From Escherichia coli (GTDB lineage Bacteria > Pseudomonadota > Gammaproteobacteria > Enterobacterales > Enterobacteriaceae), in the NCBI RefSeq assembly GCF_050920415.1, contig NZ_CP169309.1: a DNA stretch of 64,000 nucleotides. One strand, given 5' to 3'. Position 1 is the first letter of the stretch; each line of letters starts with the position of its first letter. Below, one piece after another: positions 11,839 to 43,974 of the stretch. A program made the position numbers and the translations under genes. The notes beneath the pieces were generated by a model. The model saw only the letters and a list, made by a program, of their open reading frames with translations, ran no database searches and was not told the DNA's origin.

Positions 11839-12004
11839 TCGCTAAATAATAGAGCAACCTTTAATAATCTTCTGCTGAATAAAGATTGTCTCATATATTA
11901 ATTTTATGAGATTTTTTAGGATTATATCAAAGAGAAGAAAAGAACTTATTAAGCTAGAATAGCCACAGGTGCTTGAGACTGTTTGTCTCAGGTATTCACC
12001 GAAA

Positions 12005-12065
12005 GGCAGACAGAGAAAAGCCCCACCTGACTATAAATCAAAGTGAGGCCCCTCTATGCATAGAC
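12005..12065 (-). ncRNA. sokA: putative SokA antisense RNA of the hokA type I toxin-antitoxin locus
   Basis: Minus-strand candidate promoter (TTGATT, 17-bp spacer, TAACCT) reading antisense across the upstream in-frame ATG of the hokA ORF, followed by an imperfect hairpin plus U-run; ends inferred, not measured. Confidence 0.3.
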
Positions 12066-12115
12066 ACCATAAGGTTAGCCTCTTACTCGTTGGAAATCAA
12101 CACAGGAGGCTGGGA

Positions 12116-12268
12116 ATGCCGCAGAAATATAGATTACTTTCTTTAATAGTGATTTGTTTCACGCTTTTATTTTTCACCTGGATGATAAGAGATTCACTGT
12201 GTGAATTGCATATTAAACAGGAGAATTATGAGCTGGCGGCGTTTTTAGCCTGCAAATTGAAAGAGTAA
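12116..12268 (+). CDS. hokA: Hok-family small toxic membrane peptide HokA
   Basis: 50-aa ORF MPQKYRLLSLIVICFTLLFFTWMIRDSLCELHIKQENYELAAFLACKLKE preceded by Shine-Dalgarno AGGAGG; Hok family signature. Confidence 0.85.
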   Translation: MPQKYRLLSLIVICFTLLFFTWMIRDSLCELHIKQENYELAAFLACKLKE

Positions 12269-12275
12269 GAGTCTT

Positions 12276-12302
12276 CGGCGGGAAGTTATTCCCGCCTTTC
12301 TT
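12276..12302 (+). terminator. rho-independent terminator downstream of hokA
   Basis: GGCGGGAA-GTTA-TTCCCGCC hairpin followed by TTTCTT. Confidence 0.6.
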
Positions 12303-12456
12303 ACGGCGTTGCGCATTCTCATTGCACCCAAATTTATTCTTCACAAAAATAATAATAGATTTTATTACGCGAACGATTATTTATTTCCTGAATAAACAAA
12401 TAAAAAAATCCCCGCCATTTGGCAGGGATCTTAGATTCTGTGCTTTTAAGCAGAGA

Positions 12457-12669
12457 TTACAGGCTGGTTACGTTACCAGCTGCCGGGCCTTTAGCGCCGC
12501 TTTCGATGGTGAAGGACACTTTCTGACCTTCGTCCAGAGATTTGTAACCATCGTTCTGGATAGCAGAGAAGTGTACGAACACGTCTTTAGAACCATCGTC
12601 AGGAGTGATGAAGCCGAAGCCTTTGTCAGCGTTGAACCATTTTACGATACCAGTCATTTTACCGGACAT
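12457..12669 (-). CDS. cspA: major cold-shock protein CspA
   Basis: 70-aa [73 protein letters not shown]; cold-shock domain with RNP motifs. Confidence 0.97.
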
Positions 12670-12828
12670 AGTGTATTACCTTTAATAATTAATTGTGCCT
12701 TTCGGCGATATGGCGTGCTTTACAGATTTTGAAGCGTTAAAGGAAATGCACACTACGAGGGGTATCAACGATAACTCTTGAAGGGACTTGCCTTACTACA
12801 CTGCTTTAATGGTCTGTACGTCAAACCG
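12670..12828 (-). promoter_or_regulatory. long cspA 5' untranslated leader (cold-box containing)
   Basis: About 159 nt between the cspA start codon and a sequence whose reverse complement begins ACGGTTTGACGTACAGACC, matching the known cspA transcript 5' end from memory. Confidence 0.6.
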
Positions 12829-12950
12829 TTGAAGTGCATTAAGCCACGCATTGGTGGGTGATGCAACAATTATTTTTCATATTTATGATTAATCGGTTGG
12901 AAAACGGTCCTGTCATCAGGACCGTAAACAGCAATAAAGTGGATAAAAGT

Positions 12951-19777: not shown

Positions 19778-20482
19778 GTGTTAATGATCATAAAAAAAAG
19801 CGGTGGTCGCTGGCAGTTAAGCCTGCTGGCGAGCGTGGTAATCAGTGCCTTTTTTCTCAACACAGCTTACGCCTGGCAACAAGAATATATCGTTGATACG
19901 CAACCCGGACATTCCACAGAGCGCTACACCTGGGATAGCGATCATCAACCTGATTACAACGATATTCTGTCGCAACGTATTCAAAGTAGCCAAAGGGCGC
20001 AGGGACTGGAAGTCAATCTGGCGGAAGAAACCCCTGTGGATGTGACCAGCAGTATGAGTATGGGCTGGAATTTTCCTTTATATGAACAGGTTACAACCGG
20101 CCCGGTCGCGGCATTACATTACGATGGTACAACCACCTCGATGTATAACGAGTTTGGCGACAGTACTACTACACTGACTGATCCGTTATGGCATGCCAGC
20201 GTGAGTACCTTAGGCTGGCGTGTTGACTCCCGGCTTGGCGATCTCCGACCCTGGGCGCAAATCAGCTATAACCAGCAATTTGGCGAGAATATCTGGAAGG
20301 CGCAATCAGGCTTAAGCCGGATGACGGCGACAAACCAGAACGGCAACTGGCTGGATGTCACGGTAGGTGCTGATATGTTGCTCAATCAAAATATTGCCGC
20401 CTACGCTGCGTTATCTCAGGCAGAAAATACCACGAACAATAATGACTATCTGTATACGATGGGGGTTAGTGCCAGATTTTAA
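19778..20482 (+). CDS. yhjY: putative outer-membrane protein YhjY (autotransporter beta-domain-like)
   Basis: 234-aa ORF with N-terminal signal peptide and C-terminal aromatic residue (ends VSARF) typical of outer-membrane beta-barrels; exact start uncertain. Confidence 0.7.
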   Translation: MLMIIKKSGGRWQLSLLASVVISAFFLNTAYAWQQEYIVDTQPGHSTERYTWDSDHQPDYNDILSQRIQSSQRAQGLEVNLAEETPVDVTSSMSMGWNFPLYEQVTTGPVAALHYDGTTTSMYNEFGDSTTTLTDPLWHASVSTLGWRVDSRLGDLRPWAQISYNQQFGENIWKAQSGLSRMTATNQNGNWLDVTVGADMLLNQNIAAYAALSQAENTTNNNDYLYTMGVSARF

Positions 20483-20596
20483 CGTTATAGATACAATTGA
20501 AACCCATAAATAACAACTAATGTGGCGATAGTGGGGACTAACTTACTAAATAATAAATTTGGTGAATAATTGTCGAGTCATTCATTCCTGAACTAA

Positions 20597-20627
20597 TGCA
20601 TTTCATTCCGTTCTGATGGCATTTCAT
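20597..20627 (+). promoter_or_regulatory. direct repeat GCATTTCAT-N11-GGCATTTCAT upstream of yhjX (candidate YpdB/LytTR binding site)
   Basis: Two near-identical 9-10 bp direct repeats separated by 11 bp, about 85 bp upstream of the yhjX start codon. Confidence 0.5.
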
Positions 20628-20710
20628 GCCGTTTTTCCCCAGGCATAAAGTGCACTTCGTTATGGTTGTCGGCAGAGATTTTTCCTTTTTATTACTGCAG
20701 GAATACTGCC

Positions 20711-21919
20711 ATGACACCTTCAAATTATCAGCGTACTCGCTGGCTGACACTCATCGGTACTATCATTACCCAGTTTGCCCTGGGGTCGGTTTATACCTGG
20801 AGTCTGTTTAACGGCGCGCTTTCTGCCAAGCTGGGGGCTCCGGTAAGCCAGGTTGCTTTCTCTTTCGGCTTGTTAAGTCTGGGGCTGGCAATTTCGTCTT
20901 CTGTTGCGGGCAAATTGCAAGAACGTTTTGGTGTTAAACGCGTCACTATGGCTTCCGGCATTTTGCTGGGATTAGGTTTCTTCCTGACAGCACATTCCAA
21001 CAACCTGATGATGCTGTGGTTAAGCGCCGGTGTGTTGGTTGGTCTGGCGGATGGTGCGGGCTACCTGCTGACGCTCTCAAACTGCGTGAAGTGGTTCCCG
21101 GAGCGTAAGGGACTCATCTCTGCTTTCGCTATTGGTTCTTATGGACTTGGTAGTCTGGGTTTCAAATTTATCGATACGCAACTGTTGGAAACGGTCGGTC
21201 TGGAAAAAACCTTTGTTATTTGGGGCGCGATTGTACTGGTGATGATTGTCTTTGGCGCAACATTAATGAAAGATGCGCCGAAGCAGGAAGTGAAAACCAG
21301 CAATGGTGTGGTGGAGAAGGATTACACGCTGGCAGAGTCGATGCGTAAACCGCAGTACTGGATGTTAGCAGTTATGTTCCTGACCGCCTGCATGAGTGGC
21401 CTGTATGTGATTGGCGTGGCGAAAGATATCGCTCAAAGTCTGGCGCATCTTGATGCAATTTCCGCAGCCAATGCTGTGACGGTTATTTCCATCGCCAACC
21501 TTTCTGGTCGTCTGGTGCTGGGCATTCTGTCTGACAAAATCGCCCGTATCCGTGTTATCACCATTGGTCAGGTCATTTCGCTGGTGGGCATGGCGGCCCT
21601 GCTGTTTGCACCATTGAATGCAGTGACGTTCTTTGCAGCGATTGCCTGCGTGGCATTTAACTTCGGCGGCACTATCACGGTGTTCCCGTCACTGGTCAGT
21701 GAGTTCTTCGGCCTAAATAATCTGGCAAAAAACTACGGTGTGATTTACCTCGGTTTCGGTATCGGCAGCATTTGTGGTTCGATTATCGCTTCACTGTTTG
21801 GCGGATTCTATGTGACTTTCTACGTGATTTTCGCCCTGCTGATTCTGTCACTGGCGCTTTCTACGACGATTCGCCAGCCAGAGCAGAAAATGTTGCGTGA
21901 GGCGCATGGCTCCCTTTAA
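20711..21919 (+). CDS. yhjX: MFS transporter YhjX (oxalate/formate antiporter family)
   Basis: ORF 20666..21919; start chosen at MTPSNYQRTRWLTLIG (402 aa); 12-TM MFS profile. Confidence 0.9.
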   Translation: MTPSNYQRTRWLTLIGTIITQFALGSVYTWSLFNGALSAKLGAPVSQVAFSFGLLSLGLAISSSVAGKLQERFGVKRVTMASGILLGLGFFLTAHSNNLMMLWLSAGVLVGLADGAGYLLTLSNCVKWFPERKGLISAFAIGSYGLGSLGFKFIDTQLLETVGLEKTFVIWGAIVLVMIVFGATLMKDAPKQEVKTSNGVVEKDYTLAESMRKPQYWMLAVMFLTACMSGLYVIGVAKDIAQSLAHLDAISAANAVTVISIANLSGRLVLGILSDKIARIRVITIGQVISLVGMAALLFAPLNAVTFFAAIACVAFNFGGTITVFPSLVSEFFGLNNLAKNYGVIYLGFGIGSICGSIIASLFGGFYVTFYVIFALLILSLALSTTIRQPEQKMLREAHGSL

Positions 21920-24025: not shown

Positions 24026-24102
<77 letters not shown>

Positions 24103-24108
24103 AATTCG

Positions 24109-24137
24109 AAAAGCCTGCTCAGCGAGCAGGCTTTTTT
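24109..24137 (+). terminator. rho-independent terminator after tRNA-Pro
   Basis: AGCCTGCTC-AGCG-AGCAGGCT hairpin followed by TTTTTT. Confidence 0.7.
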
Positions 24138-24152
24138 GCATTTGAAGCCCAT

Positions 24153-24270
24153 GAGGATGAGAACCTCCGGGGGCGGGGAGGTTCGACTCGAGCGAAGCGA
24201 GAGAACGTTGCGCCAGCAACGGCCCGCAGGGCGAGCCACGAAGTGGCGAGTAATCCTCTATCACCGACCA
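24153..24270 (+). repeat. tRNA-Pro 3'-end-containing repeat unit 1 (T-arm start, about 63-nt insert, then the last 19 nt of tRNA-Pro)
   Basis: Begins with GGAGGTTCGA (tRNA T-stem) and ends AATCCTCTATCACCGACCA, identical to the proK 3' end; followed by its own terminator at about 24277..24304. Confidence 0.6.
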
Positions 24271-24276
24271 ATTTAG

Positions 24277-24304
24277 AAAAACCAGCCTACGGGCTGGTTT
24301 TTTG
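24277..24304 (+). terminator. rho-independent terminator after repeat unit 1
   Basis: CCAGCC-TACG-GGCTGG hairpin followed by TTTTTT. Confidence 0.6.
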
Positions 24305-24320
24305 CTTTCTGCGGCCTGAA

Positions 24321-24424
24321 GAGGATGAGAACTTCCGGGGGCAGGGAGGTTCGACTCCAGCAAAGCGAGAGAACGTTGTGGCAGCAACGGCCCGCAGTGG
24401 CGAGTAATCCTCTGGCACCGACCA
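24321..24424 (+). repeat. tRNA-Pro 3'-end-containing repeat unit 2 (diverged copy of unit 1 with a 14-nt deletion)
   Basis: About 85 percent identical to unit 1; ends AATCCTCTGGCACCGACCA (two mismatches to the proK 3' end). Confidence 0.6.
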
Positions 24425-24433
24425 AATCTGAAC

Positions 24434-24519
24434 GTAGGCCTGATAAGACGCGTCAGCGCCGCATCAGGCAACGGCACCGCACTTATTGTCGGATGCGGCG
24501 TGAACGCCTTATCTGACCG
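24434..24519. repeat. REP/BIME element (two inverted REP palindromes)
   Basis: GTAGGCCTGATAAGACGCGTCAGCGCCGCATCAGGCA and CGGATGCGGCGTGAACGCCTTATC: canonical REP consensus. Confidence 0.8.
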
Positions 24520-25056
24520 ACACACCACATATTTCCCTGCCAAATTTGCGCCCCACATCTCACTATCCATTAACGGATTTGTGACAGAATCCATTGTCTT
24601 TTTTTATATTTGCTTAAATCTTTTTTTGCGTTACTTATGGCTGGCGCTGGTATTTTCCGCTGTGCGTTTTAGCGTTCATGGTATTAATCGCTCAGATATC
24701 CATCTTTTCCTCAGATTTTTTTCATTAAATGCATAAAACTTAATCACCAAATGTTGCTAAATATTAAGCTGATTGTTCTGGTTATGTTGGCGTAGCACAA
24801 ATTTCTCTGCTGCAAATAGCTGTTTGAAGTTTTTTTAATCTTTGTTTGTGGATTCTCACCGTTGGTGTAAATCCCGGTTGGCTGTATTGACGTTTTCACA
24901 TTCTGTTGACAGATTGTAGGTCACGAGGGGCATTTTATGGAGGATCCGCACTGTTACACTGATGTTAATTAGTACGGCATCCCCACCTCATAACGTTGAC
25001 CCGACCGGGTAAAAAACAAAAAAGGTCAGGCAGCGACAACCCACTGCAAAGGGTTA

Positions 25057-25073
25057 AAACAACAAACATCACA
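25057..25073 (+). promoter_or_regulatory. CA-rich element in the dppA leader (candidate GcvB sRNA pairing site)
   Basis: AACAACAAACATCACAA about 15 nt upstream of the dppA Shine-Dalgarno (GGAG); GcvB targets CA-rich sites in dppA. Confidence 0.45.
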
Positions 25074-25087
25074 ATTGGAGCAGAATA

Positions 25088-26695
25088 ATGCGTATTTCCT
25101 TGAAAAAGTCAGGGATGCTGAAGCTTGGTCTCAGCCTGGTGGCTATGACCGTCGCAGCAAGTGTTCAGGCTAAAACTCTGGTTTATTGCTCAGAAGGATC
25201 TCCTGAAGGGTTTAACCCGCAGCTGTTTACCTCCGGCACCACCTATGACGCCTCTTCCGTACCGCTTTATAACCGCCTGGTTGAATTTAAAATCGGCACC
25301 ACTGAAGTGATTCCGGGCCTCGCTGAAAAGTGGGAAGTCAGCGAAGACGGTAAAACCTATACCTTCCATCTGCGTAAAGGTGTGAAGTGGCATAACAACA
25401 AAGAATTCAAACCGACGCGCGAACTGAATGCCGATGACGTGGTGTTCTCGTTCGATCGTCAGAAAAACGCACAAAACCCGTACCATAAAGTTTCTGGCGG
25501 TAGCTACGAATACTTCGAAGGTATGGGCTTGCCGGAGCTGATCAGCGAAGTGAAAAAGGTGGACGACAACACCGTTCAGTTCGTGCTGACTCGCCCGGAA
25601 GCGCCGTTCCTTGCTGACCTGGCAATGGACTTCGCCTCTATTCTGTCAAAAGAATATGCTGACGCGATGATGAAAGCCGGTACGCCGGAAAAACTGGACC
25701 TTAACCCAATCGGCACCGGCCCGTTCCAGTTACAGCAGTATCAAAAAGATTCCCGTATCCGCTACAAAGCGTTTGATGGCTACTGGGGCACCAAACCACA
25801 GATCGATACGCTGGTCTTCTCTATTACCCCTGACGCTTCCGTGCGTTACGCTAAATTGCAGAAAAATGAATGCCAGGTGATGCCGTACCCGAACCCGGCA
25901 GACATCGCCCGCATGAAGCAGGATAAATCCATCAACCTGATGGAAATGCCGGGGCTGAACGTCGGCTATCTCTCGTATAACGTGCAGAAAAAACCACTGG
26001 ATGACGTGAAAGTTCGCCAGGCACTGACCTATGCGGTGAACAAAGACGCGATTATCAAAGCAGTGTATCAGGGCGCGGGCGTATCAGCGAAAAACCTGAT
26101 CCCGCCAACCATGTGGGGCTATAACGATGATGTTCAGGACTACACCTACGATCCTGAAAAAGCGAAAGCCTTGCTGAAAGAAGCGGGTCTGGAAAAAGGC
26201 TTCTCTATCGACCTGTGGGCAATGCCGGTACAACGTCCGTATAACCCGAACGCTCGTCGCATGGCAGAGATGATTCAGGCAGACTGGGCGAAAGTCGGCG
26301 TACAAGCGAAAATCGTTACCTACGAATGGGGTGAGTACCTCAAGCGTGCAAAAGATGGCGAGCACCAGACGGTAATGATGGGCTGGACTGGCGACAACGG
26401 GGATCCGGATAACTTCTTCGCTACCCTGTTCAGCTGCGCTGCCTCTGAACAAGGCTCCAACTACTCAAAATGGTGCTACAAACCGTTTGAAGATCTGATT
26501 CAACCGGCGCGTGCTACCGACGACCACAACAAGCGTGTTGAACTGTACAAACAAGCACAGGTCGTGATGCACGATCAGGCTCCGGCACTGATCATCGCTC
26601 ACTCCACCGTGTTTGAACCGGTACGCAAAGAAGTTAAAGGCTATGTGGTTGATCCATTAGGCAAACATCACTTCGAAAACGTCTCTATCGAATAA
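25088..26695 (+). CDS. dppA: dipeptide ABC transporter periplasmic binding protein DppA
   Basis: 535-aa ORF starting MRISLKKSGMLKLGLSLVAMTVAASVQAKTLVYCSEG; recognised as DppA. Confidence 0.97.
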   Translation: MRISLKKSGMLKLGLSLVAMTVAASVQAKTLVYCSEGSPEGFNPQLFTSGTTYDASSVPLYNRLVEFKIGTTEVIPGLAEKWEVSEDGKTYTFHLRKGVKWHNNKEFKPTRELNADDVVFSFDRQKNAQNPYHKVSGGSYEYFEGMGLPELISEVKKVDDNTVQFVLTRPEAPFLADLAMDFASILSKEYADAMMKAGTPEKLDLNPIGTGPFQLQQYQKDSRIRYKAFDGYWGTKPQIDTLVFSITPDASVRYAKLQKNECQVMPYPNPADIARMKQDKSINLMEMPGLNVGYLSYNVQKKPLDDVKVRQALTYAVNKDAIIKAVYQGAGVSAKNLIPPTMWGYNDDVQDYTYDPEKAKALLKEAGLEKGFSIDLWAMPVQRPYNPNARRMAEMIQADWAKVGVQAKIVTYEWGEYLKRAKDGEHQTVMMGWTGDNGDPDNFFATLFSCAASEQGSNYSKWCYKPFEDLIQPARATDDHNKRVELYKQAQVVMHDQAPALIIAHSTVFEPVRKEVKGYVVDPLGKHHFENVSIE

Positions 26696-26732
26696 TTAAA
26701 AGCCATACAAGGTTGATGGCAAACGCAAAACT

Positions 26733-26831
<99 letters not shown>

Positions 26832-32385: not shown

Positions 32386-32585
32386 ATTTCACTACCAGTC
32401 TGGAGTCAGCCCGGATATGAACTGCAACTATTGCAAATAAAGAAATTAAGCTGGAAGGCATCACGCAATGAGGAAGATTGCCGGGTGCTGACGGTAAAAA
32501 GCAATCGTAAAATCAGCGGCAAGCCGGAAAGGTTCCGGTGAGGCGCAATGTTGCGGGGGCTTAATCCCTGGTGGCATTGGTTGCT

Positions 32586-32654
32586 GGAGAGAGAAAACCC
32601 CCGCACGTTGCAGATATTCACCTGACAACATCACGGGGGCTAATCTTGAACCTA
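32586..32654 (-). ncRNA. rdlD: Rdl antisense RNA, copy 1 (approximate ends)
   Basis: Minus-strand reading gives a GC-stem hairpin (CCCCCG...CGGGGG) followed by UUUUCUCUC; -10-like TATTCT upstream on minus strand; ends inferred from the Rdl family. Confidence 0.45.
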
Positions 32655-32705
32655 GACCACTCAAGAATAGCCGCGAAACGTTGTCATTACAACACAGGCG
32701 GCTAT

Positions 32706-32813
32706 ATGACGCTCGCAGAACTGGGCATGGCCTTCTGGCATGATTTAGCGGCTCCGGTCATTGCTGGCATTCTTGCCAGTCTGATCGTGAACTGGCTGAA
32801 CAAGCGGAAGTAA
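32706..32813 (+). CDS. ldrD: Ldr type I toxin peptide, copy 1 (35 aa)
   Basis: MTLAELGMAFWHDLAAPVIAGILASLIVNWLNKRK; Ldr family small hydrophobic toxin. Confidence 0.85.
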   Translation: MTLAELGMAFWHDLAAPVIAGILASLIVNWLNKRK

Positions 32814-33071
32814 CGTGTCAGACGGGCGTCAGGCTGCCGTAATGGCAATTTGCGCCCGGACCAGGCCGCAGGGATAAAACTCTGCGGCCTTTTTCGTAAG
32901 AAAAATGCAACGGTTGCAAGCGGATAATATTCTGCGGAATGCGCAGCACAGAGTGAAGAAGTGATGGATTCTGGAACAGAAAAACAGTCGTAGAATCAGC
33001 GGCAAGCCGGAAGGGTTCCGGTGAGGCGCAATGTTGCGGGGGCTTTATCCCTGGTGGCATTGGTTGCTGGA

Positions 33072-33140
33072 GAGAGAAAACCCCCGCACGTTGCAGGTAT
33101 GCACCTGACAACATCACGGGGGCCATTCTTGCATCCAAAC
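33072..33140 (-). ncRNA. rdlD: Rdl antisense RNA, copy 2 (approximate ends)
   Basis: Same structure as copy 1; minus-strand promoter-like TTGTAA, 17-bp spacer, TATTCT. Confidence 0.45.
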
Positions 33141-33188
33141 AATACAAGAATAGCCGCGAAACGTTGTCATTACAACAGAGGCGGCTAT

Positions 33189-33296
33189 ATGACGCTCGCA
33201 GAACTGGGCATGGCCTTCTGGCATGATTTAGCGGCTCCGGTCATTGCTGGCATTCTTGCCAGTCTGATCGTGAACTGGCTGAACAAGCGGAAGTAA
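33189..33296 (+). CDS. ldrD: Ldr type I toxin peptide, copy 2 (35 aa)
   Basis: MTLAELGMAFWHDLAAPVIAGILASLIVNWLNKRK. Confidence 0.85.
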   Translation: MTLAELGMAFWHDLAAPVIAGILASLIVNWLNKRK

Positions 33297-33555
33297 CGTG
33301 TCAGACGGGCGTCAGGCTGCCGTAATGGCAATTTGCGCCCGGACCAGGCCGCAGGGATAAAACTCTGCGGCCTTTTTCGTAAGAAAAATGCAACGGTTGC
33401 AAGCGGATAATATTCTGCGGAATGCGCAGCACAGAGTGAAGAAGTGATGGATTTCGACGAACAAAAATGGCCGTAGAATCAGCGGCAAGCCGGAAGGGTT
33501 CCGGTGAGGCGCAATGTTGCGGGGGGCTTTATCCCTGGTGGCATTGGTTGCTGGA

Positions 33556-33624
33556 GAGAGAAAACCCCCGCACGTTGCAGGTATGCACCTGACAACACCA
33601 CGGGGGCCATTCTTGCATCTAGAC
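33556..33624 (-). ncRNA. rdlD: Rdl antisense RNA, copy 3 (approximate ends)
   Basis: Same structure as copies 1-2. Confidence 0.45.
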
Positions 33625-33672
33625 CATTCAAGAATAGCCGCGAAACGTTGTCATTACAACAGAGGCGGCTAT

Positions 33673-33780
33673 ATGACGCTCGCAGAGCTGGGCATGGCCT
33701 TCTGGCATGATTTAGCGGCTCCGGTCATTGCTGGCATTCTTGCCAGCATGATCGTGAACTGGCTGAACAAGCGGAAGTAA
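33673..33780 (+). CDS. ldrD: Ldr type I toxin peptide, copy 3 (35 aa)
   Basis: MTLAELGMAFWHDLAAPVIAGILASMIVNWLNKRK (L26M relative to copies 1-2). Confidence 0.85.
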   Translation: MTLAELGMAFWHDLAAPVIAGILASMIVNWLNKRK

Positions 33781-34038
33781 CGTGTCAGACGGGCGTCAGG
33801 CTGCCGTAATGGCAATTTGCGCCCGGATCAGGCCGCAGGGATAAAACTCTGCGGCCTTTTTCGTAAGAAAAATGCAACGGTTGCAAGCGGATAATATTCT
33901 GCGGAATGCGCAGCACAGAGTGAAGAAGTGACGGATTCCGGAACAGAAAAACAGTCGTAGAATTAGCGGCAAGCCGGAAGGGTTCCGGTGAGGCGCAATG
34001 TTGCGGGGGCTTTATCCCTGGTGGCATTGGTTGCTGGA

Positions 34039-34107
34039 GAGAGAAAACCCCCGCACGTTGCAGGTATGCACCTGACAACATCACGGGGGCTAATCTTGAA
34101 CCCAAAC
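34039..34107 (-). ncRNA. rdlD: Rdl antisense RNA, copy 4 (approximate ends)
   Basis: Same structure as copies 1-3. Confidence 0.45.
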
Positions 34108-34155
34108 AACTCAAGAATAGCCGCGAAACGTTGTCATTACAACAGAGGCGGCTAT

Positions 34156-34263
34156 ATGACGCTCGCAGAACTGGGCATGGCCTTCTGGCATGATTTAGCG
34201 GCTCCGGTCATTGCTGGCATTCTTGCCAGTCTGATCGTGAACTCGCTGAATAAGTGGAAGTAA
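34156..34263 (+). CDS. ldrD: Ldr type I toxin peptide, copy 4 (35 aa, variant C-terminus)
   Basis: MTLAELGMAFWHDLAAPVIAGILASLIVNSLNKWK (W30S and R34W relative to copies 1-2). Confidence 0.8.
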   Translation: MTLAELGMAFWHDLAAPVIAGILASLIVNSLNKWK

Positions 34264-34349
34264 CGTGTCATGCGGGCGTCAGGCTGCCGTAATGGCAATT
34301 TGCGCCCGGATCAGGCCGCAGGGGTGAAACTCTGCGGCCTTTTTCGTTC

Positions 34350-41634: not shown

Positions 41635-43974
41635 ATGAAAAGAAAACTATTCTGGATTTGTGCAGTGGCTATGGGGATGAGTGCGTTCCCCTCTTTCATG
41701 ACGCAGGCGACGCCAGCAACGCAACCACTGATCAATGCTGAGCCAGCTGTAGCCGCCCAGACGGAACAAAATCCGCAGGTGGGGCAAGTGATGCCGGGCG
41801 TGCAGGGCGCTGATGCCCCCATCGTGGCGCAGAACGGTCCTTCGCGTGATGTGAAGCTGACCTTTGCGCAAATTGCGCCACCGCCGGGCAGCATGGTGCT
41901 ACGTGGCATTAACCCGAACGGCAGCATTGAGTTTGGTATGCGCAGCGATGAAGTGGTGACGAAGGCGATGCTCAACCTCGAATACACGCCATCGCCATCG
42001 TTACTGCCTGTCCAGTCGCAGTTAAAGGTTTATCTCAATGATGAACTGATGGGCGTGCTGCCAGTGACCAAAGAACAGTTGGGTAAAAAAACGCTGGCAC
42101 AAATGCCAATTAACCCACTGTTTATTACCGACTTCAACCGTGTGCGGCTGGAGTTTGTCGGTCATTATCAGGACGTGTGCGAAAACCCGGCCAGCACCAC
42201 GCTTTGGCTGGATGTTGGGCGGAGCAGTGGACTGGATCTGACCTATCAGACCCTGAATGTGAAGAATGATCTGTCACACTTCCCGGTACCATTCTTTGAC
42301 CCGCGTGATAACCGCACCAACACCTTGCCGATGGTCTTTGCGGGTGCGCCGGATGTTGGGCTGCAACAAGCATCTGCCATTGTCGCCTCGTGGTTTGGTT
42401 CGCGTTCTGGCTGGCGTGGGCAGAACTTCCCGGTGCTCTATAACCAACTGCCGGATCGCAATGCCATCGTTTTTGCCACTAATGACAAACGCCCGGACTT
42501 CCTGCGCGATCATCCGGCGGTAAAAGCCCCGGTGATTGAGATGATCAACCATCCACAGAATCCTTACGTCAAACTGCTGGTGGTCTTTGGTCGTGACGAC
42601 AAAGACCTGTTGCAGGCAGCGAAAGGTATCGCTCAGGGTAACATTCTGTTCCGTGGTGAAAGCGTGGTAGTGAATGAAGTGAAACCGCTGCTACCGCGTA
42701 AGCCGTACGATGCGCCGAACTGGGTGCGTACCGATCGTCCGGTCACCTTTGGTGAACTGAAAACCTATGAAGAACAGTTACAATCCAGCGGTCTTGAGCC
42801 AGCAGCGATTAACGTTTCGCTAAACCTGCCGCCGGATCTCTACCTGATGCGCAGTACCGGCATTGATATGGATATCAACTATCGCTACACCATGCCGCCG
42901 GTGAAAGACAGTTCGCGGATGGATATCAGCCTGAATAACCAGTTCCTGCAATCCTTCAACCTGAGCAGTAAACAGGAGGCGAACCGCCTGCTGCTGCGTA
43001 TTCCGGTATTACAAGGTTTGCTGGATGGCAAAACGGATGTCTCTATTCCGGCGCTGAAACTGGGCGCGACCAACCAGTTGCGGTTCGACTTTGAGTATAT
43101 GAACCCGATGCCGGGCGGTTCGGTGGATAACTGTATTACCTTCCAGCCGGTGCAGAATCATGTGGTGATTGGTGACGACTCCACCATCGACTTCTCGAAG
43201 TATTACCACTTCATCCCGATGCCGGATCTACGCGCCTTTGCTAACGCGGGCTTCCCGTTCAGCCGGATGGCGGATCTGTCACAAACCATCACCGTGATGC
43301 CGAAAGCGCCTAACGAAGCACAGATGGAAACCTTGCTGAATACCGTTGGCTTTATCGGTGCGCAGACGGGCTTCCCGGCGATTAACCTGACGGTGACCGA
43401 TGATGGCAGCACCATTCAGGGCAAAGATGCCGACATCATGATTATCGGTGGTATCCCGGACAAACTGAAAGACGACAAGCAGATCGACCTGTTGGTGCAG
43501 GCGACCGAAAGCTGGGTGAAAACGCCGATGCGCCAGACCCCGTTCCCCGGCATTGTGCCGGACGAGAGCGATCGCGCGGCAGAAACTCAATCAACGCTGA
43601 CCTCTTCCGGTGCGATGGCAGCGGTGATTGGCTTCCAGTCGCCGTATAACGACCAGCGTAGCGTGATTGCGCTGCTGGCAGATAGCCCACGCGGTTATGA
43701 AATGCTTAACGATGCGGTGAACGATAGCGGCAAACGCGCCACCATGTTCGGCTCGGTCGCGGTGATCCGCGAGTCCGGTATCAATAGCCTGCGTGTTGGC
43801 GACGTCTATTACGTTGGCCATCTGCCGTGGTTCGAACGCTTATGGTATGCGCTGGCAAACCATCCGATTCTGCTGGCGGTGCTGGCGGCAATCAGCGTCG
43901 TGCTGCTGGCCTGGGTACTGTGGCGTTTGCTGCGTATTATCAGCCGTCGTCGTCTTAACCCGGATAACGAGTAA
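41635..43974 (+). CDS. bcsB: cellulose synthase regulatory subunit BcsB
   Basis: ORF 41548..43974; start at MKRKLFWICAVAMGMSAFPSF (signal peptide), 779 aa. Confidence 0.9.
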   Translation: MKRKLFWICAVAMGMSAFPSFMTQATPATQPLINAEPAVAAQTEQNPQVGQVMPGVQGADAPIVAQNGPSRDVKLTFAQIAPPPGSMVLRGINPNGSIEFGMRSDEVVTKAMLNLEYTPSPSLLPVQSQLKVYLNDELMGVLPVTKEQLGKKTLAQMPINPLFITDFNRVRLEFVGHYQDVCENPASTTLWLDVGRSSGLDLTYQTLNVKNDLSHFPVPFFDPRDNRTNTLPMVFAGAPDVGLQQASAIVASWFGSRSGWRGQNFPVLYNQLPDRNAIVFATNDKRPDFLRDHPAVKAPVIEMINHPQNPYVKLLVVFGRDDKDLLQAAKGIAQGNILFRGESVVVNEVKPLLPRKPYDAPNWVRTDRPVTFGELKTYEEQLQSSGLEPAAINVSLNLPPDLYLMRSTGIDMDINYRYTMPPVKDSSRMDISLNNQFLQSFNLSSKQEANRLLLRIPVLQGLLDGKTDVSIPALKLGATNQLRFDFEYMNPMPGGSVDNCITFQPVQNHVVIGDDSTIDFSKYYHFIPMPDLRAFANAGFPFSRMADLSQTITVMPKAPNEAQMETLLNTVGFIGAQTGFPAINLTVTDDGSTIQGKDADIMIIGGIPDKLKDDKQIDLLVQATESWVKTPMRQTPFPGIVPDESDRAAETQSTLTSSGAMAAVIGFQSPYNDQRSVIALLADSPRGYEMLNDAVNDSGKRATMFGSVAVIRESGINSLRVGDVYYVGHLPWFERLWYALANHPILLAVLAAISVVLLAWVLWRLLRIISRRRLNPDNE

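Follow-up and report, generated by a model that had tools for sequence, protein, structure and literature searches.

The two direct repeats upstream of yhjX in the window, by which we mean the whole stretch of 64,000 nucleotides of Escherichia coli DNA analyzed here, are the published YpdB/PyrR sites A and B of the yhjX promoter and as such are already known. An earlier note had read the repeats as a binding site of the LytTR type, and the match to the published site, the domains of the regulator, the distribution of ypdB and the induction data together establish that the interpretation was correct and that the finding had been made before. We hold it as nearly certain that the account stands as a whole, that is, that the published A/B operator drives yhjX and that the allele with T in site A, present in this strain, is functional.

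Sequence and placement of the repeats

The gene order of the region (bisC, yiaC, tag, yhjY, yhjX, eptB and tRNA-Pro) is that of the E. coli chromosome. The yhjY stop lies at 20482 and the yhjX ATG at 20711, positions which the RefSeq annotations of K-12 and of an identical strain support. Over 20300-21000, strain MFDS1022581 is 100% identical to the window, and 5422 of the 5426 complete E. coli genomes give a match. YhjX passes the NCBIfam equivalog NF049980 (SfMCT; 344 bits, cutoff 320) and therefore carries the RefSeq name "L-lactate MFS transporter"; the K-12 annotation still lists it as "putative transporter", and published work regards it as putatively transporting or exporting pyruvate.

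The elements of the operator and its gene are as follows.

20597..20606, plus strand: YpdB site A, the high-affinity primary site; TGCATTTCAT here, GGCATTTCAT in K-12
20598-20609: conserved 12-mer of site A, GCATTTCATTCC, present in 80/80 species
20607..20617, plus strand: 11-nt spacer TCCGTTCTGAT; the leading TCC is part of the conserved 12-mer and the remainder is variable
20618..20627, plus strand: YpdB site B, the low-affinity cooperative site; GGCATTTCAT
20619-20630: conserved 12-mer of site B, GCATTTCATGCC, with an invariant TTTT downstream at 20632-20635
20574..20631, plus strand: equivalent of the K-12 fragment used for surface plasmon resonance (SPR); 56/58 bases match, the two SNPs being A vs C at 20576 and T vs G at 20597
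20711..21919, plus strand: yhjX, the regulated gene, an MFS transporter of the oxalate/formate-antiporter family

Exact copies of GCATTTCAT occupy 20598-20606 and 20619-20627, with starts 21 bp apart. Across 20590-20640, the local order reads GAACTAAT-GCATTTCAT-TCCGTTCTGAT-G-GCATTTCAT-GCCGTTTTTCCCC, where the text continuing 3' of the second copy is also written GCCGTTTTT. A repeat finder widened the pair to 15 nt, GCATTTCATtCCGTT and GCATTTCATgCCGTT, with 93% identity and a period of 21. Measured against the published GGCATTTCAT, site B matches at 10 of 10 positions and site A (TGCATTTCAT) at 9 of 10, and the spacer is 11 nt long. The two near-identical repeats of 9-10 bp with an 11-bp spacer that the earlier note had described are thus confirmed at 20597-20606 and 20618-20627, and its placement of them about 85 bp before the yhjX start was correct, the count being 83 nt between repeat B and the ATG.

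Identity with the published YpdB operator

YpdB binds a direct repeat of GGCATTTCAT in PyhjX, with 11 bp between its sites A and B (Behr et al. 2016, PMC4847170). The sites of K-12 (Fried, Behr & Jung 2013, J Bacteriol 195:807; Behr, Heermann & Jung 2016, Biosci Rep, PMC4847170) share with the window the locus, the gene order, the repeats and the 11-bp spacer, while the window differs in having T for G at base 1 of site A and A for C at 20576. From position 20598 to the ATG, the alignment shows the window to be identical to K-12 MG1655. The SPR oligonucleotide of Behr 2016, CGCGTCATTCATTCCTGAACTAAGGCATTTCATTCCGTTCTGATGGCATTTCATGCCG, is said there to span all the nucleotides protected from DNase I in Fried et al. 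2013 (PMC4847170). Taken through that description, the comparison with the published YpdB footprint gives an exact positional match, with 56 of 58 bases identical (PMC4847170).

The published kinetics assign a KD of 1.2 nM to site A and of 21 nM to site B (PMC4847170). Inactivation of A abolished all binding and inactivation of B left a single binding event; YpdB was described to bind as monomers in a sequential and cooperative manner, B requiring an occupied A, and the nucleotides flanking the sites were found to affect expression in vivo (Behr 2016, PMC4847170). The gene responds strongly to the stimulus, yhjX being up 678-fold at 3 mM pyruvate (PMC7660256). That yhjX is the pyruvate-responsive target of YpdA/YpdB, as had been proposed, is supported by the locus being the same as that of the published operator (PMC4847170).

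The assignment to the LytTR class is supported as well. LytTR sites have been defined as two repeats of 9-11 nt placed 11-13 nt apart (quoted in PMC4847170), and the repeats here fit that architecture with a length of 9-10 nt (12 nt by conservation), a spacer of 11 nt and a period of 21 bp. K-12 YpdB/PyrR combines PF04397 LytTR (E 2.4e-34) with PF00072 Response_reg. The regulator genes ypdAB lie outside the window; ypdB was found in 5422 of 5426 complete E. coli genomes, and with the gene near-universal in the species, ypdA and ypdB are very likely present in the source genome.

The same arrangement of two 9-11 nt repeats, 11-13 nt apart with a period of ~21 bp on one face of the DNA, is known from the Gram-positive operators of the AgrA, ComE, PlnC and VirR type (PMC4847170). 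Those operators differ from the yhjX site in their unrelated consensus, in their regulators and in serving quorum sensing and toxins rather than pyruvate scavenging. They lie just upstream of a weak -35. Another related system is the promoter of btsT (yjiY) with its regulator BtsR (YehT), which likewise belongs to a paralogous pyruvate-sensing system of the LytS/LytTR kind and whose locus is absent from the window. The BtsR site there, said to have been described by Kraxenberger et al. in 2012, reportedly shares the direct-repeat architecture and the control of a single transporter gene and reportedly differs in its repeat sequence and in having a 13-bp spacer.

An alternative is that the yhjX repeats are bound mainly by BtsR and not by YpdB, which we regard as very improbable. 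The BtsSR and YpdAB systems are interconnected, and yhjX induction in uropathogenic E. coli has been ascribed to the pair BtsS-YpdB, but that cross-talk takes place at the level of the kinase and the DNA-binding partner named is still YpdB (PMC9765748). Moreover, YpdB binding was measured directly on this DNA with PyjiY, the BtsR target, as the nonbinding control, and yhjX was described as the sole direct target of YpdB (PMC4847170).

Conservation across Enterobacteriaceae

We collected yhjX loci from 80 Enterobacteriaceae species representing ~25 genera and aligned the 200 nt before the start codon. Both 12-mers and their 21-bp spacing were found in all 80 orthologous promoters, and the mean information reached 1.86 bits in three 12-nt blocks vs 0.80 in the rest of the intergenic region.

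20577-20588: block 0, consensus GyCATTCATTCC, 1.80 bits
20598-20609: site A, consensus GCATTTCATTCC, 1.96 bits
20619-20630: site B, consensus GCAnTTCATGCC, then invariant TTTT, 1.81 bits

The core TCAT[TG]CC recurs at an exact phasing of 21+21 bp in 79 of 80 distinct sequences. Conservation of the motif across genera had been reported earlier (PMC5552118). Position 1 of the published 10-mer varies among the species, being G in 51 and T in 29 at site A, and T in 44, G in 28, C in 6 and A in 2 at site B, and these mixed counts indicate that the position is unconstrained. The two or three bases that directly follow the 10-mer on its 3' side (kCC) are invariant. Given the free first position and the invariant 3' end, the recognition unit is better written as GCAnTTCATkCC.

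Within the species, 4171 of the 5422 E. coli genomes are only 90-95% identical to the window across the 701 bp of 20300-21000, and just 8 reach 99% identity or more. The 3' end of yhjY and the distal part of the intergenic region are unusually polymorphic; the YpdB sites and the core promoter are nearly invariant.

The conservation bears on a further alternative, in which a short direct repeat without any part in regulation arose here by chance or by duplication. Short repeats are indeed plentiful: exact 9-mer pairs at most 30 bp apart yielded 20 seeds (~13 loci) in the window vs 6.45 +/- 3.6 in dinucleotide shuffles, and taken alone, such a pair is not rare and is unremarkable. Single copies of GCATTTCAT are also found on the minus strand at 43697 and 59529; considered as candidate sites, they have no tandem partner and we took them as chance occurrences. 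The tandem arrangement, on the other hand, is unique. A 22-base pattern GCATTTCATNCC-N9-GCATTTCATNCC, allowing up to 3 mismatches, was found in the window only at the yhjX promoter, where sites A and B match with 0 mismatches and block 0 with A with 3, and 0.00 occurrences were expected from 100 shuffles. In addition, the sequence and spacing are kept in 80 of 80 species while the surrounding DNA diverges, and both binding and mutational data have been published (PMC4847170). Conservation and published binding data have thus already refuted the chance origin, to which we assign practically no credence.

The T allele of site A

Of 5426 complete E. coli genomes, 1626 have the exact 71-nt haplotype of the window (20570-20640), an ST131 strain among them, and 3561 have the exact K-12 haplotype. 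Consequently, ~30% of complete E. coli genomes have T at position 1 of site A. Indirect evidence on its function comes from UTI89 (ST95), which also carries the T allele and in which the native yhjX transcript was acid-induced in the wild type and not in a ΔbtsSΔypdB double mutant (PMC9765748); as the double deletion also removes the kinase BtsS, that result does not isolate YpdB. Natural promoter variants were all found to respond to pyruvate (bioRxiv 2021.07.18.452581). We conclude that T at the first base of site A is a common natural allele and very likely neutral.

A third in-phase unit upstream of site A

The earlier note had mentioned a weaker third repeat further upstream. Such a repeat is present exactly 21 bp before repeat A, with 9 of 12 bases identical in register, and we refer to it as block 0.

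20577..20588, plus strand: block 0, GTCATTCATTCC; located within the published DNase I-protected fragment and having the invariant TTCATTCC in common with site A

The SPR oligonucleotide begins at CGCGTCATTCATTCC and therefore takes in block 0 (PMC4847170). In the literature examined, we did not find block 0 as a named site, and the word "third" is absent from PMC4847170.

One explanation is that the published two-site model understates the extent of the operator and that YpdB reads block 0 together with A and B, block 0 being weak and cooperative. The spacing of 21+21 bp in 79 of 80 promoters, the invariant TTCATTCC common with A and a conservation of 1.80 bits per position, on par with the 1.81 of site B, are all consistent with this, as are the location of block 0 within a fragment described as DNase I-protected and the influence of flanking nucleotides on expression in vivo (PMC4847170). 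Against it, YpdB-D53E binding was gone entirely when A was mutated with block 0 and B intact, and only one event was seen when B was mutated (PMC4847170), which indicates that block 0 has no detectable binding, independent or A-assisted, under those SPR conditions. Furthermore, the 5' part of block 0, GyCA, differs from GCAT, and in 70 of 80 species the A/B matrix gives the block a score below 8 of 22 bits. We consider a three-unit operator possible and somewhat doubtful. Such a reading refines the two-site explanation and does not replace it, and block 0 may be a weak cooperative third position or have some other role.

Predicted core promoter and 5' untranslated region

Downstream of site B, two features were annotated from the alignment.

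20661..20666, plus strand: predicted -10 hexamer TATGGT, with T in 80/80, A in 80/80, T in 69/80, any base, G in 61/80 and T in 78/80
20642..20653, minus strand: inverted copy of the motif, reading GCACTTTATGCC and agreeing with the site-B consensus at 11/12 positions; located between the predicted -35 region and the predicted -10

Transcription would start near 20674, as suggested by an invariant CAG at 20673-20675. With the start predicted there, site B would lie at approximately -55 to -44, and B, A and block 0 would be centered near -49.5, -70.5 and -91.5. A scan for consensus sigma-70 promoters found none between the repeats and the ATG, the single hit being at 20469-20497 at the end of yhjY; this is expected for an activator-dependent promoter, and the -35 region would be poor, as also expected. 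With TAAAGT (20646-20651) as an alternative -10, site B would overlap the -35; we rejected this possibility, as the hexamer is not conserved across genera and UTI89, where yhjX is induced normally, has TAAAGC at the place.

A matrix built from sites A and B places the inverted copy at +22/+23 relative to B; 24 of the 80 species have it, the window included, and it is lineage-restricted. It could act as a low-affinity operator limiting expression.

Further downstream, an imperfect palindrome TATTACTGCAGGAATA at 20690-20705 overlaps the Shine-Dalgarno sequence AGGA (20699-20702). The GGA at the small GCAG/CUGC hairpin is a possible CsrA contact, and PMC11508082 mentions that YhjX is activated in a CsrA-dependent way. 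The predicted RNA fold of the 5' untranslated region was no better than those of shuffled sequences (z = -0.30), and an Rfam search of the yhjY-yhjX intergenic region gave no match.

An upstream palindrome and other candidate factors

The alignment revealed one more conserved element on the yhjY side of the operator.

20527..20542, no strand assigned: GATAGTGGGGACTAAC, an imperfect palindrome of the form GATAG-N6-CTAAC; it follows the yhjY stop, precedes the YpdB sites and is conserved in the majority of the 80 species

The distance from the palindrome to block 0 is 46-47 bp in 31 species and 54-58 bp in 27 species; the two classes are approximately one helical turn apart, a pattern that suggests a second DNA-binding factor. 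The palindrome may be part of the yhjX control region. Among the consensus sequences of CRP, FNR, PdhR/GntR, OxyR/LysR, NarL, ArcA, TrpR and SlmA, we know of none that fits it both in sequence and in spacing. The literature was searched for additional factors acting in the yhjY-yhjX intergenic region, and the only result was a PhoB ChIP-chip site of a different sequence, reported in K-12 as TTTTAACGTAACAGTCAC at -225.5 of yhjX (PMC3465305). The equivalent in the window, at ~20476-20493, is ATTTTAACGTTATAGATAC, and with several bases different, the PhoB site may not be kept in this strain.

The conservation patterns indicate that the third in-phase unit and the upstream palindrome are under purifying selection. 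A broader proposition is that control of yhjX extends beyond the two-site "AB-BA" model, with block 0, the inverted copy and the upstream palindrome all taking part; we think this rather unlikely. If it were true, the inverted copy could let an excess of YpdB shut the promoter off again.

Other features of the window

The window contains a 483-bp tandem array of 3.8 copies at 32497-34347 with four Rfam matches to the rdlD antitoxin on the minus strand (32592, 33075, 33559 and 34042); it is a type I toxin-antitoxin array of the ldr/rdl kind in expanded form. At this place, UTI89 carries three Ldr toxin genes and K-12 presumably one. The following matches also passed the Rfam gathering score.

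11967-12118: sok/hokA antitoxin
12402-12830: cspA thermoregulator
24026-24102: tRNA-Pro(CGG)
24137-24424: two RtT RNAs
24437-24518: naRNA4
26754-26796: ES036

The matches within 11967-12830 and 24026-26796 are ordinary for this region of E. coli.

Regulatory model and implications

The initial steps of the mechanism at this promoter have been published. Extracellular pyruvate activates the kinase YpdA, and YpdB is phosphorylated by it; a first YpdB monomer binds the upstream high-affinity site A, and its presence there allows a second monomer to bind cooperatively at the lower-affinity site B, 21 bp or two helical turns downstream on the same face of the DNA. For the steps that follow, we infer that site B abuts a weak -35 region accompanied by the conserved -10 TATGGT at 20661-20666, and that the bound YpdB pair would recruit RNA polymerase and thereby switch on yhjX, probably a monocarboxylate-type MFS transporter.

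The site, its regulator, the stimulus (pyruvate) and the binding kinetics have all been published, and the result carries little weight as a discovery. Nevertheless, the earlier reading shows that a real operator can be recovered from sequence alone. The comparative refinements are minor, testable additions: the recognition unit GCAnTTCATkCC with its free position 1, the T allele, block 0 and the upstream palindrome could guide the design of pyruvate biosensors or a re-examination of the AB-BA model.
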